Shown: piece by piece, positions 14,801 through 29,270 of the stretch
Numbering within the stretch: the first letter of the stretch is position 1
Layout: each line of letters begins with the position of its first letter
Assembly (NCBI GenBank): GCA_963921275.4
Contig: OZ001293.3
Span: 384,001 to 448,000 of the forward strand
Length of the DNA stretch: 64,000 bases
Origin: an uncultured Hormoscilla sp.
GTDB taxonomy: Bacteria > Cyanobacteriota > Cyanobacteriia > Cyanobacteriales > Desertifilaceae
Reading direction: 5' to 3'
Made by a program: the position numbers and the translations under genes
Notes under the pieces: model-generated
What the model saw: the letters and a program-made list of their open reading frames with translations, nothing else
Told to the model about the DNA's origin: nothing
Databases searched by the model: none

Positions 14801-16118
14801 CCAAATTATCTGTAGAATAGATGTGCCTGATCCCACTTTTTTGAGGGTTTTCTGAGACTTTAATCGTCACAGGTGAAGCCACAGTTCCGCCGTCAGGAGT
14901 AACCCCAACAAATCCTCCCTGGGAATAGCCAAAATAAATGTCATCTAGATTTTGTGCTAAAGCAAAGACGCGGTATTGTTGCCATAAGTGACGCTCTATA
15001 TCTCTGCCCTCTTGTATATCTAACAAACCGATTCGGATCGCCTCAGCGGTGCTTTGATTGAGTGCAATTGGTTTTGCCAAATAATCAGTCAGGTGTTGCT
15101 CGATGCGAGCCGTTATTTCCCTACGCAACTGATTAGGGGTCGAGCTGGGAATCGCTTCGGAACCCTCCCGTTCGGAACCTAAAGAGCGACTTTCACCGCA
15201 TCCGGCTACTGGGTAGTAGGCCCAAGTCATTGGTAGGTAACTTTTGGATTACTCCCTTTGTCCCTTATCTCATGCAATTTCGCTCCTTTCCTGGTTGGTG
15301 AGTGGCCGGAAAACCTTTAGTATCACCATTATCGCGTCCGTTTTACCAGTAATCTATTCCTCAATCACCGAAGTGACGGGCTTATAACGTATCTAGAGTT
15401 ACTTTCACCTGAGACTTCCTACTATCACCCACCCTCACCGCACGTCGGCGTATCCTAAGCATTACCCCAGGCATTTGCTTCTTGGGGGCAGGCTTGGGCT
15501 CCCACTCGTGGCTTACGCTTCACATCTGACTGGTCCAGTTGGACAGCTCACGAGGGGTTACTTCGTCCCCTGGTCTCCGGAGCGCGATGCCTTTAGGTCC
15601 CTACTCTACCCCGGTAGTTCTTTGAGTACGATGTTAGCCAACAACAAAGACTAACACTAATTACGGTGACTTTTGTCTCCGGCGCATAAAGCCTTATTTC
15701 GCCGGTTTGAGGTAACGAGGCTTCTATAGGTTTGCTTGATCTAACCTTGGACATCATCGAGCGCGGAGTCGCCAAGGCTGCCAGCTATCCTACATTTAAG
15801 TTCTCGCTTAGCACCACGATGATGTTACTTCGCAACACCTCCAACCGGTGTTACCCCCGTACTTGGGGAGGCGGAATTTAACCCCCATGAATACCAGAGT
15901 TCCTAGTTTCCTAGGCTAGCGTTCCGCGTTTGAACAGGTTAGACTAGAACGAATCGCACGGTGGTAACCTCATTGACAGCTTTCTGTCCGTTGCGTAAGG
16001 AAAGATAGCCTGTCAATCCTACCGCTGCGCAGATTTGCAGCACAAAGGGGACGATGAAGACGGTTCGCAGCCCGACAGTTCCAGAAAGTTTGTCAACTAG
16101 ACGGTTGAGAGTTTTCAT
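11891..16118 (-). pseudogene. Cache-HAMP hybrid sensor histidine kinase (HK-REC-HK), intron-interrupted and frameshifted
   Basis: Fragments: TM, Cache (RPWYKAA), HAMP (RSDEVGELA), ANTSHELRT, HATPase, REC, second HK. The C-terminal 576-aa frame is open. Confidence 0.85.
15132..15959 (-). ncRNA. ORF-less group II intron (828 nt) inside the sensor kinase gene
   Basis: 5' GTGCGATTCGTT; D5 gtAGCcggatgcggtgaaagtcgc; 3' ctcgAcccctaat; removal restores the reading frame. Confidence 0.9.
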
Positions 16119-25366: not shown

Positions 25367-25603
25367 ATGAGAAAAGTTAAAGATATTGATGGCTTTAGTT
25401 CCGCCGGACGTCCTCTTCTGTCAGCAAAAGAATGTCAAAAACTGCGTCAGGAGAAAATTCAGCAACAGCAAGAGTCAAACTATCAACTGTTGGCAGAACT
25501 TTGTCGCTTAGGGGAGGAGGACGCTGCCAAGCTACTGACAAACCGCAATTATAGCTGGGGTTATGAAGTAGTTGACGGAGTGGTCAGGGAAAGGTTAGAT
25601 TAA
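25367..25603 (+). CDS. Hypothetical protein
   Basis: RBS GAGGGAG; shares the WGYE(I/V)VDG motif with the upstream gene. Confidence 0.65.
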   Translation: MRKVKDIDGFSSAGRPLLSAKECQKLRQEKIQQQQESNYQLLAELCRLGEEDAAKLLTNRNYSWGYEVVDGVVRERLD

Positions 25604-25805
25604 TTGCAAATTGGGAATTGAGAATGGCGAATTATTTGATGGCAAGTGGGGGCGATGATTGGAAAATTTTTGGCGATCGCATGTGGTTGGTGTACGCAGG
25701 ACATTGGCGTAAGCATGTGGCCGGGGCACAAATCAGTAATATAATAATATGAACCGAAAGATCTCTGATGCCGTGCCCCTTGTATACTAAGATTAGTCTG
25801 GTGGA

Positions 25806-26633
25806 GTGCGATTCGTTCTAGTCTAACGTAGTCAAACACGGAACGCTAGCCTAAGAAATTAGGAACTCTGGTAATCATGGGGGTTCAATTCCCCCTCCCC
25901 AGGTACGGGGGTCGAGGGTACTACCGGTCGGAGGTGCTACGGAGCGACATCGCCGTGGTGCCTCCCGAGGACTTAAATGTAGGATAACTGGCAGCCTAAG
26001 CCGGTGACGCCGCTAGGAAAGATGCTAATGGTTAGAACAAGCGAACCTATGTAAACCTCGTTAACTAGAACCAGCGGAATAAGGCTTATGCGCTTGCCCA
26101 AAAAAAGGGAAATGGTAGTTAGTATTAGCTCTTCTATCTGGCTAATAACGTACTCAAAGAACTCCCGGGGTATAGTAGGAACCTAAAAGCATCGTGAAAT
26201 GATACTAGGGAACGAAGTAACCCATCGTGTGCTGTCTACCGAGACCAGTCAGATGTGAAGCGCAAGCTACGGTGGGAGGGATGGCCCAAGAAGCAAAAGC
26301 CCTAATTAATGCCTGGGATAAGCAAACAGGGGTCGGTGACAGTAGGAAATCTCGGGCTAAAGTAACCCTAATACGCCCCAATACCTAGCATGCGAAGGTG
26401 GGATAACTGGTGAAACGGACTCAGATAAATTGGTAATACTAAAGGTTATCCGGCAGCGCCACTTACCAACCAGGAAAGGGGAGAAATTACATGAGATGAG
26501 GGACAACGGGAGTAATCCCCAGTAATCCTACCAATGACAAGGCCCTACTGCCCAGTAGCCGGGTGCGGTGAAAGTCGCAAGCCCGGTTCCGCTCTTGGAG
26601 GGTTGGGGAGTGATTCCCAGCTCGACCCCGACC
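25806..26633 (+). ncRNA. ORF-less group II intron (828 nt) in the IS110 left end
   Basis: GTGCGATTCGTT; D5 gtAGCcgggtgcggtgaaagtcgc; ctcgAccccgacc; EBS1 TCTATC pairs 6/6 (2 G-U) with GGTGGA. Confidence 0.9.
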
Positions 26634-26851
26634 AGAGCACTCAAACACTCTCTCTACTTCGGTCAGGTGAAGCTGGCGTGCCCCTAAGACACCTTAAGGC
26701 TAAGTCTGTTGTGTAGATTAGCTCCCTGCAGGTGAATCACGACTGGTTTGATCCTGATACTGTCCAGTATCTTAGGCCACCCACGCTTTGTTGAGCCTGC
26801 TAAACCGCGGTTAGTTGCATTGACCAGTCAGCATACAATTTGTATGCTATC
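26634..26851 (+). ncRNA. Putative IS110 bridge RNA
   Basis: CGTGCCCCT (26677-26685) equals the left target flank; TGTAG (26712-26716) is the reverse complement of core plus right flank; CAGTATCT (26765-26772) equals the donor end. Confidence 0.75.
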
Positions 26852-27686
26852 GTGCGATTCGTTCGGACGTAAACCAGTAATGGTGAAAGTCTGATCTGGT
26901 TCAGTAAGCCAGATAACTCTGGTCATCATAGGGGTTAAATTCCCCTCCCTCAGGTACGGGGGTGACACCGGTCGGAGGTGCTGCGGAGTAACATCACCGT
27001 GGTGCTGAGCGAGGACTTAAATGTAGGATAGCTGGCAGCCACAGCTGGCAACTCCGCTTGTTAGAGGCTCATGGTTAGAATAAGCGAATCTCTGTAAGTA
27101 TCGTTAACGCAAACCAGCGAAAGGGCTGTTACGCTGGCCCAAAATGGGAAAGCAGTTAGTATCAATGTTGGTATCTCATTGGTATCGTACTCGAAGAACT
27201 GCCGGTATAGAGGAGAGACCTAAAAGCCTCGTGAAATGATATCAGGGAACGAAGTAACCCCACGTGAGCTGTCCAGTAGGACCAGTGAGATGTGAAGCGC
27301 AAGCCACGTGTGGGAGAGATGGCCCAAGAAGCTAATGCCTAGGGTAATGCCTATGGATATGCAGACGTGGGTCGGTGATGTCAGGAAACTACTGGAATAA
27401 GTAGCCTTAAAACGTCATAGGCCCATTCACAGCGTTAGCTAAAGTGAGTTGAGGAATGTATTACTGGTAAAACGGATATGTAAATGGTGATACTAAAGGT
27501 TTTCCGGCGGCGCCACTCACCAACCAGGAAAGGGGCAAACATGTAAGTAGTAAGGGACAACGGGAGTAATCCAAAAGTTACCTACCATGAAAAAGGGCCT
27601 GGCACCCAGTAGCCGTGTGCGATGAAAGTCGCATGCACGGTTTCGAAAGGGAGGGTTGGTACGCGAGTACCAGCTCGACCCCGGCT
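26852..27686 (+). ncRNA. ORF-less group II intron (~835 nt) in the IS110 left end
   Basis: GTGCGATTCGTT; D5 gtAGCcgtgtgcgatgaaagtcgc; ctcgAccccggct; EBS1 GGTATC pairs 5/6 with GCTATC. Confidence 0.88.
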
Positions 27687-27721
27687 CACTTAAAATTGAG
27701 TTAAAATTGAGGTACAGTGCT

Positions 27722-28162
27722 ATGACACAAACAGTTCTAGGCATCGACAGAGCGCAAAAAGACATTTCATGTCGCTCTGATGCTTGAGAACGGCAAAACT
27801 CTCACCAAAACACTTCTACAACGACGACAAAGGGTTCAGCCAGCTGAGCACCTGGCTAGAGAGACATGAGGTAACGACAGTCCATGCTTGTATGGAAGCC
27901 AGAGCGCATCTATGGCGAAGCATTGGCAGAATATTTGTACTCTGCTGGTCATATTGTTAGTATCGTGAATCCCGTTCGCATTAAAGCTTTTGCGCTCCGA
28001 CATAATTCTTTGCTCAAAGCGTTCAGCGACCGATTGCTGAATCGCGGTAAGGTAAAGATGCAGGTGATTGGAGCGGTGATGCGCAAGTTGTTACATATGG
28101 CTTTTGGAATATTAAAGTCCCAAAAGCCCTTCGATCCGAATTTTTTATCGGCAACCCCTTGA
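27722..28162 (+). pseudogene. IS110 transposase remnant
   Basis: MTQTVLGID, VHACMEA, VSIVNPVRIKAFA joined to C-terminal GKVKMQVIGAVMRKLL; frameshifts and a large central deletion. Confidence 0.85.
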
Positions 28163-28184
28163 CAGTTCGACACAGTATCTACAT

Positions 28185-29270
28185 TTAATTGGCGCTCGCC
28201 ACCCGATGCGAGCGCATCGGGGTCGGGGCACAGATAATATTGGCGATCCCATGTGGCCGGGGCACAGATAACATTGGGGATCGGATCTCTTCCCTGACAT
28301 CTATGGTAGGGGTACGGAAGAAATTTATCAGGATATAAACTAAAAGATATCTATTGCCGTGTCCCAGCCCTAAATTTGCGATCTCCTCCTGACATTTGAT
28401 TGACATTATATTCGCGATCGGGCATCGGGTGGCGAGCGCATCGGGCCGGGGCACGGCGTATTTATCATAATAATATGAACCGAAAGATATCGGATGCCGT
28501 GCCTCTACGGAACATTGGCGATCGGATGCAGACAGAACATTGGCGAGCGCATGTTGTCGGGGCACAGATAATATTGGCGAGCGCGTGAGACCGGGGCACG
28601 GCGTTTTAAACATTTTCATTATTAGGGAAAATTTTCGGATACGCTGGCGCTGTGCTCCTACAGGAAATTGGCGATCTCGCATCAGGGGGCGAGCGCATGT
28701 GTTCGGGGCACAGATAATATTGGCGAGCGCATGTGTTCGGGGCACAGATAATATTGGCGATCTAATTTATTTCCTGACCAGCATTGTAGGGGCATGGCAT
28801 CGATAAATTAGGATAGAAACTGAAAGATATATATCACCGTGCCCCGGCCCCACGAATGAGTGACATTTAATTGGCGATCAGGCATTGAGGGGCCATCGCA
28901 TGTTGTCGGGGTACAGATAATATTGGCCATCGTAAGCTGTGATGCATCTAAATTGCATATTTCCCTATCAGGTTAAATCGTGGCAACCCTGTATACATAA
29001 GCGTTTCCGCCATAATGGCCAACGCATGACTATGCATTTTAAATGCGCGACAGCTTATGTTGTCGGGGCACAGATAATATTGGTGATCGCATGTGGTCGG
29101 TGTACGCAGGACATTGGCGATCGCATGTGGCCGGGGCACTGCGGATTTAATATCATAATATGAACCGATAATCTGCGCTATGCCGTACACCTACAGTTCA
29201 TATGAGATCGCATCCAGACATAATATTGGCGATCGCATATGAACGTTGACATTATATTCGCGATCGCCCC
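28185..29270. repeat. Degenerate REP/HIP1-associated repeat cluster
   Basis: Many variants of ggggcacagataatattggcga(g/t)cgcatg interleaved with ggggcacggc...gccgtgcc hairpins; similar blocks at 25670-25780 and 31890-32280. Confidence 0.75.

Follow-up and report, generated by a model that had tools for sequence, protein, structure and literature searches.

What mobile element interrupts a host repeat in a 64,000-nt stretch of an uncultured Hormoscilla sp. genome (contig OZ001293.3, positions 384,001 to 448,000; hereafter the window), does it encode an RNA that spells its own insertion site, and is it still a working element? A preliminary description made from the sequence alone had proposed an IS621-like member of the IS110 family whose bridge RNA carries a copy of its target. 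The analysis reported here points, with a probability of about 0.9, to a decayed IS621-type (IS110 group) RNA-guided insertion sequence (IS) in a cyanobacterial genome, later colonised by two group II introns that lack an open reading frame (ORF). Judged by its sequence, the copy appears to be a relic of the IS110/IS621 type rather than a functional member, and a new member of an element type that is already known.

The element interrupts a low-copy REP-like host repeat

Direct reading of positions 25500-28900 delimited an IS110-family element at 25781-28180, bounded by two CT cores. The left flank (25719-25780, plus strand), a unit of a host repeat resembling repetitive extragenic palindromic (REP) sequences, ends in gatgccgtgccc-CT, that is, in the left target CGTGCCC and the core CT (25772-25780, core at 25779-25780), and is followed by TGTATACT. 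The right end (28159-28180, plus strand) comprises the -35 box TTGACA (28159-28164), the left donor ACAGTAT (28172-28178) and the core CT (28179-28180); it reads acacagtat-CT and then acattt (acatttaattgg), and is also found in 50 or more relatives and in IS621. In the right flank (28181-28200, plus strand), the right target ACA... leads into the continuing REP-like unit (ACATTTAATTGGCG.TCGCC). Removal of the element leaves the empty site gccgtgcccCTacat. Joining of its ends gives ACAGTATCT+TGTAT, with TTGACA (28159-28164), 18 nt across the joint and TATACT (25783-25788) as the boxes of a junction promoter. The same boxes are present in relatives, where their conservation partly reflects how the ends were picked, as the search pattern required TTGAC.

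The uninterrupted target 12-mer CGTGCCCCTACA occurs at nine perfect empty sites in the genome, all within one longer unit (..AACCGAAA..GATGC-CGTGCCCCTACA-TTTAATTGGCGATCGC) and three of them in tandem at C1:667434-667611. Four left junctions are occupied, all reading CGTGCCCCT|TGTAT; besides the window copy, left-end fragments lie at three target copies (C1:4140001, C1:4123720 and C1:155329). One right-end fragment, at C1:1085392, ends ACAGTATCT|ACAG. The target is a low-copy REP-like host repeat, and the proposal that the element is programmed against such a repeat is upheld by the recurrence of the unit at the nine empty sites. The near-matches to the target that had been listed downstream are real and lie at 28496 (plus strand, 3 of 15 positions mismatched), 28798 (minus strand, 2 of 15, covering about 28784-28798) and 32051 (plus strand, 2 of 15). 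The empty site, guide positions, stems and promoter boxes of the preliminary description were all confirmed by direct reading.

Two further observations concern this repeat. Downstream of the element, window positions 28190-29200 are crowded with related short repeats (..GGCGATCGCATGTGGCCGGGGCACAGATAATATT..) and HIP1-type GCGATCGC sites that belong to the same REP-like landscape as the target. The locus G000:C1:155329-155365 (plus strand) reads CGTGCCC-CT-tgtatgctaagattagt-CT-acatc, with the right target directly following the initial 17 nt of a left end at an internal CT; it is possibly an excision scar.

The left end encodes a bridge RNA whose guides match the flanks

The left end, called non-coding in the preliminary description, is a bridge-RNA region of ~278 nt, and 1,663 of the ~1,940 bases that precede the recombinase gene belong to two group II introns. 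Once these are removed, the left end measures 25 + 218 + 35 = 278 nt to the ATG. Exon 1 (25781-25805, plus strand) contains the -10 box TATACT at 25783-25788 and the first bases of the guide-RNA leader; at its end, intron-less relatives read ..GTCTGGTGGA|AGAGGA.. continuously. Exon 2 (26634-26851, plus strand) holds the whole bridge-RNA core, with a covariance-model match at 26644-26831 and a 3' hairpin at 26830-26848. Exon 3 (27687-27721, plus strand) is the leader between the guide RNA and the recombinase start (ATG at 27722-27724).

In the target loop, on the plus strand, the left target guide (LTG) is CGTGCCCCT at 26677-26685 and the right target guide (RTG) is (T)GTAG at 26712-26716, with an inner stem of AGAC (26687-26690) and GTCT (26704-26707) and an outer stem of GGTGAAGCT (26666-26674) and AGCTCCC (26720-26726). 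The LTG is identical to the flank at 25772-25780, and the GTAG of the RTG complements CTAC at 28179-28182. The donor loop has an outer stem (26741-26748/26822-26829) and an inner stem of TAGGC (26773-26777) and GCCTG (26795-26799). Its left donor guide (LDG), CAGTATCT at 26765-26772, equals the right end at 28173-28180, and an aberrant right donor guide (RDG), AACCGCGG, occupies about 26803-26810. For IS621, the available text of PMC11208160 gives the LTG as top-strand sense and the RTG as antisense, together with a junction promoter. The window copy has the same sense and antisense arrangement including the CT core, a left-end bridge RNA with target and donor loops upstream of the recombinase gene, and, as a predicted feature, the promoter across the circle junction. 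A search of Rfam 15 found no family matching the bridge-RNA region at E values up to 1, and returned only the domain V-VI (D5-D6) matches of the two introns and chance ones.

Guides and flanks covary among relatives

Among 401 genomes of the same order, a DNA search detected relatives in 14, this one included, and a protein-seeded scan of contigs added 76 more loci. By record title, these loci come from Microcoleus, Tychonema, Kamptonema, Chamaesiphon, Pseudanabaena, Leptolyngbya, a gammaproteobacterial metagenome-assembled genome (MAG), Brevefilum, Superficieibacter and Buttiauxella. A covariance model, R1, was built from nine aligned left ends with RNAalifold helices, excluding pairs inside the guide loops; as the window sequence was part of the seed, its own score of 168 bits is a given. 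In 95 sources, R1 found 87 matches. Pairing in the five helices of the model reaches 93.6%, as compared with 26-41% in slid-partner controls, and both sides have changed in 25 of 28 pairs.

Left ends were located independently of the guide by their conserved TGTATNYT start. A left end and an LTG ending in CT were obtained for 59 of the 87 matches, giving 16 distinct guide/flank pairs; the other 28 were left out as truncated, at contig ends or with loops lacking CT (e.g. L005/16/17 and L047). At the seven non-core positions, LTG and left flank agree 7/7 in 46 of the 59 relatives, 6/7 in 10, and 5/7, 4/7 and 0/7 in one each. With one representative for each of 12 guide classes, 72 of 84 positions match, a value reached by 0 of 20,000 permutations; the classes are related to each other and the permutation figure is not a clean probability. 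Matching pairs include CGTGCCC, CGTGTCC, CCCGCCC, CCCACCC, ATTATGC and TGACATC. The covariation of LTG and left flank across the 12 classes upholds the claim that the guides encode the target.

On the right side, the two guide positions after the core are constrained (32/33 and 33/33), and the third agrees in 12/33. The pentamer TGTAG, which had been proposed as the right guide, does lie in the internal loop, but only GTAG is constrained and the fifth base is not part of the guide; the working RTG is predicted to be GUAG, as in IS621. Other right targets vary together with the RTG, namely CTAA in L079 and CTCC in L081-83 (RTG GGAG), the latter three having been missed by the RTG search pattern and their RTG/flank match read by eye.

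The recombinase gene is a remnant

Alignment with intact 323-aa relatives by tblastn, together with the ORF list, placed a recombinase remnant at 27722-28162 (plus strand). It aligns to residues 11-59 in one frame with an internal stop, to residues 62-90 in another frame, and then directly to residues 268-323. Codons 1-90 are therefore spread over different frames with premature stops (the frame opened by the ATG stops at 27785-27787), and codons 268-323 are intact. A deletion of ~531 bp (~177 codons) near 27992 corresponds to relative residues about 91-267. According to the available text of PMC11208158, D11, E60, D102, D105 and S241 of the IS621 recombinase are all essential; by alignment, the deletion removes the equivalents of D102, D105 and S241, three of these five catalytic residues. 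The hallmark of IS110 is a recombinase that combines a DEDD RuvC-like domain at the N terminus (PF01548) with a C-terminal serine transposase domain (PF02371); the window copy encodes no such protein, and Pfam found no domain in the two remnant fragments tested. Intact relatives (L010 and others) carry both domains. Restoring the deletion and removing the introns gives a size of 2400-828-835+531 = 1268 bp, as compared with 1252 bp in the relative L004, whose own open frame lacks the first codons.

The assignment to the IS621 type was borne out by the recombinase of an intact relative, which matched the IS621 structure 8wt6 with an E value of 5.5e-78 and is collinear with it over residues 6-317 (312 residues). 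R1 matched the left end of genuine IS621 from an Escherichia coli RefSeq record (35.6 bits, E 3e-9). In the R1 columns, IS621 has LTG AUCGGGCCU, RTG GUAG, LDG GACAGUAUC and RDG CAAGG, and its genuine junctions read ATCAGGCCT|TGTAT and ACAGTATCT|AC.

Two group II introns flank the guide core

Intron 1 (25806-26633, plus strand) is 828 nt long, with D5-D6 at 26554-26632 and the loop of exon-binding site 1 (EBS1), TCTATC, at 26133-26138. Intron 2 (26852-27686, plus strand) is 835 nt long, with D5-D6 at 27608-27685 and the EBS1 loop GGTATC at 27170-27175. Neither contains an ORF, and the ORF list holds none of at least 60 aa with a reverse transcriptase role inside either. Rfam RF00029 scored 41.9 bits for intron 1 and 47.4 bits for intron 2 (cut-off 40), both alignments have AGC at the start of D5, and GTGCG 5' ends lie at 25806 and 26852. 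A repeat finder recovered the two bodies of ~830 nt, spaced about 1,040-1,050 nt apart and with 70-88% identity in the repeat segments it detected; intron 2 is about 78-80% identical to intron 1. The 3' ends (..GACC and ..GGCT) lack the usual AY. The hallmarks of group II introns, including the 5' GUGYG, the domain V AGC triad, domain VI, precise insertion and pairing of EBS1 with intron-binding site 1 (IBS1), are accordingly present in the two sequences.

The borders of intron 1 were set by intron-less relatives, which read GGTGGA|AGAGGA (...gtctggtgga|agagga...), and by 3'-end homology with intron 2. Those of intron 2 were set by a duplicate of the locus, which reads GCTATC|CACTTAAAA (...gtatgctatc|cacttaaaattg) and provides an exact empty site at G000:C1:4100254/4100250. 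The position of EBS1 emerged from 358 copies of the intron family, in which 45 perfect complements to the six bases at the exon end fall at intron positions 300-350. In intron 1 it pairs with GGTGGA at 6/6 positions (two of them G-U), and in intron 2 with GCTATC at 5/6. The guide core lies wholly in the middle exon; intron 1 interrupts the leader ~10 nt before the start of the model match, and intron 2 follows directly after the 3' hairpin.

A contig joint that skips 835 bases (26851>27687) was found in three sequencing runs; the contigs carrying it probably come from the duplicated paralogue. Across the contigs of four runs, the only joints were 26851>27687, 25805>26647 and 25805>26702, and since these match paralogous loci of the same genome they have no bearing on splicing or alleles.

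The duplicate of part of the element, at C1:4100472-4100074 (minus strand), is 99% identical to the window copy and 100% identical over the intron parts. Its intron 1 is fused to the end of the upstream host gene, and it is a segmental duplication, not a product of transposition. The first 177 nt of its recombinase gene have the same frameshifts as the window copy, and intron 2 is absent; intron 2 would therefore have entered an element that was already dead. The duplicated region as a whole, G000:C1:4098000-4102700 (minus strand), corresponds to window positions 24.2-27.9 kb; within it, intron 1 is interrupted by an IS of ~1 kb, and the recombinase remnant is cut at nt 177 by a group II intron that bears an ORF and lies antisense.

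The intron family is abundant and dispersed in the genome, with 358 matches to the 5' end and 339 BLAST matches reaching the 3' end. At least 153 are simple copies of ORF-less size, about 1.9% of the genome, a count from strict pairing of 5' and 3' search patterns that undercounts. At least 148 D5-D6 matches exceed the Rfam cut-off, with 150 of 867 candidates scored. In the window, 5' ends of the family lie at 15959 (minus), 18444, 18463, 25806, 26852, 47515, 56360 (minus) and 60473 (minus). The 5' exons of the family are very diverse, which indicates dispersal and not homing to the IS. A uniform distribution would give about 20 neighbour gaps of at most 1.1 kb (the maximum in 500 simulations was 32); 29 were counted, and twelve same-strand pairs are spaced like the pair in the window. 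Given the intron load and this mild clustering, two introns in one small element need no special explanation. In the literature searched on cyanobacterial group II introns, no genome was found with more than 101 introns; the highest printed count found is the 101 of Arthrospira platensis (PMC8919778), which the load of at least 340 copies here exceeds more than threefold.

Proposed mechanism and alternative explanations

By homology with IS621, for which the steps are established, a working element of this type would excise as a circle, and its joined ends would create a sigma-70 promoter (TTGACA-18-TATACT) from which the bridge RNA would be transcribed off the left end. The donor loop would hold the element's own junction, CAGUAUCU, and the circle junction of the window copy, if formed, would read ACAGTATCTTGTAT. 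The DEDD/serine recombinase would swap strands at the CT core; since the insertion site lies in a REP-like host repeat, the guide would spell the flanks. The introns probably landed by ordinary retrotransposition guided by EBS1-IBS1 pairing, intron 2 presumably after the element was already dead. The copy is very probably inactive because its recombinase gene is frameshifted and lacks 531 bp, its RDG is replaced, and one intron begins 25 nt into the left end while the other directly follows the guide core on its 3' side.

Several findings weigh against a guide RNA of this design or against parts of its support. The identity of loop and flank might be a coincidence, or the loop a captured host repeat with no guiding role: the host repeat is dispersed, CGTGCCCCT occurs 58 times in the whole genome and, although the window holds exactly two copies, one at the junction and one in the guide loop, shuffles of the window expect 0.5 copies and contain at least two in 10 of 100 cases. 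Taken alone, the 9-mer coincidence is weak evidence; what supports the guide is the position in the loop and the covariation among relatives. The structure counts come from alignment A2, whose fitting to the model biases them upwards. Guide and flank disagree in L007 (5/7), L082 (4/7) and L095 (0/7, probably a wrong boundary call), and L006 has the right flank CTCC against the guide GUAG. Covariation of the RTG was not significant by permutation (2,752/20,000) because nearly all relatives share GUAG. The minimum-energy fold of the window copy, a single-sequence fold of the spliced left end, beats any fold with the canonical helices by 10.3 kcal/mol and pairs 7 of 9 LTG bases. That fold buries the guides, an outcome which the preliminary description had named as refuting it. 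The helices bounding the guide loops are nevertheless retained in the comparative structure and when intact relatives are folded, with some guide bases paired within the loops; in two intact relatives, L010 and L004, the canonical fold falls short by about 1 kcal/mol. Finally, the RDG position reads AACCGCGG where most relatives have CACAAGG (the complement of CTTG) and does not pair with the left end CTTGTAT, and RDG variants GACTCTCG are also present in copies with intact recombinases. A coincidence would nevertheless have to put the 9-mer into one and the same loop in every relative, within a structure backed by covariation, and to change that loop together with the flank in at least six guide classes from different genera and phyla; it is contradicted by the LTG/flank covariation and has a probability close to nil.

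Two other readings accept the guides and differ on activity. In one, the remnant is non-autonomous and a recombinase gene elsewhere in the genome still mobilises it in trans, as its intact ends, LTG, RTG, LDG and promoter boxes and the fragments of relatives at four copies of the same target would allow. Searching this genome, which is 96.7% complete and in which a gene could be missed, with PF01548 and PF02371 turned up no intact IS110 recombinase; the best locus, C1:1850158-1850901, is interrupted by 2 TAG stops, and the remaining loci are fragments 79-161 aa long. As this copy is also the only full-length one in the genome and its RDG does not match the left end, mobilisation in trans is very unlikely. 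Slightly less improbable, and still a poor bet, is a working system, now or in the past, in which group II splicing gates RNA-guided transposition. Both introns are sense-oriented with GTGCG 5' ends, D5-D6 scores above the cut-off and EBS1 pairing with their 5' exons; they flank the guide core (26644-26831) without cutting it, and intron 1 predates the segmental duplication. An ancestor with an intact recombinase might, at similarly long odds, have moved while bearing intron 1, splicing releasing both the guide RNA and the recombinase message, and intron splicing would then be a gate on bridge-RNA recombination. The only other copy with intron 1, however, is the segmental duplicate with its upstream host gene and gives no independent transposition; the recombinase frameshifts are common to both copies and intron 2 is not; no left end of intron size occurs among the 59 relatives in which that end was mapped; and among 358 copies, chance alone would bring about 20 neighbour pairs within 1.1 kb. 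A decayed IS621-type element that was colonised by introns remains the preferred reading.

Comparison with known systems

The window copy resembles IS621 in its left-end bridge RNA with two internal loops, CT core, junction promoter and REP-type insertion; in the RTG GUAG with right target CT+AC, and, among intact relatives, the RDG core CAAGG; and in a donor junction 14-mer, ACAGTATCT|TGTAT, identical to that of IS621. It differs in its cyanobacterial host, in the left guide CGUGCCC instead of AUCGGGC, in the loss of recombinase residues about 91-267, in its altered RDG and in the two group II introns. ISPpu9 and ISPpu10 of Pseudomonas putida, also of the IS110 family, insert in a conserved, copy-rich intergenic repeat, REP or other, as far as the available texts describe them (PMC12288879; 10.64898/2026.03.19.712850). 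The host repeat here is low-copy in contrast (nine perfect empty 12-mers), a comparison made by description only.

Group II introns nested in insertion sequences are known, e.g. RmInt1 in ISRm2011-2. ORF-less introns have proliferated in Thermosynechococcus, according to the available text of PMC2882425. The introns described here are similar in their sense orientation inside a mobile element and in their many copies per genome; a reverse transcriptase acting in trans presumably serves the ORF-less copies. Unlike introns nested in other insertion sequences, those described here lie outside coding sequence, one in the guide-RNA leader and one in that of the recombinase gene. In the literature searched on group II introns with IS110 or bridge RNA and in cyanobacteria, no introns in a bridge-RNA gene were found.

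As a relic without function, the copy has its value as a worked natural example. Its cyanobacterial clade combines readable guide/target covariation with the donor junction of E. coli IS621, which supports the generality of the bridge-RNA rules, and relatives with intact 323-aa recombinases offer natural guide variants. The nested introns indicate that a guide-RNA gene can be struck by retroelements.

Variation among the relatives

In alignment A2, an RDG of the form GACTCT(C/T)G in place of CACAAGG recurs in L013, L022, L025-like copies, L033, L038, L046, L061, L062, L068, L075 and L077. The recombinase of these elements looks intact and their left ends still start CTTGTAT. In five relatives with intact recombinases (L008, L010, L012, L013 and L018), arrays of ~19 nt repeats (gatcgaaccgacaatcagg-like) separate the -10 box from the guide RNA; they lie about 150-350 nt 5' of the guide core and lengthen the left end to as much as 480 nt. 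These arrays recall the 'tandem non-coding repeat units' mentioned in the available text of a preprint (10.64898/2026.08.14.744561). Four loci of one MAG (L040, L042, L056 and L057) share about 240-390 extra bases within the recombinase match, in elements roughly 400 bp longer. Rfam at the gathering threshold found no intron or other family in those extra bases; it found no intron in the longer relatives L002, L040, L042, L048 and L069, and placed an RNase P RNA adjoining L002.

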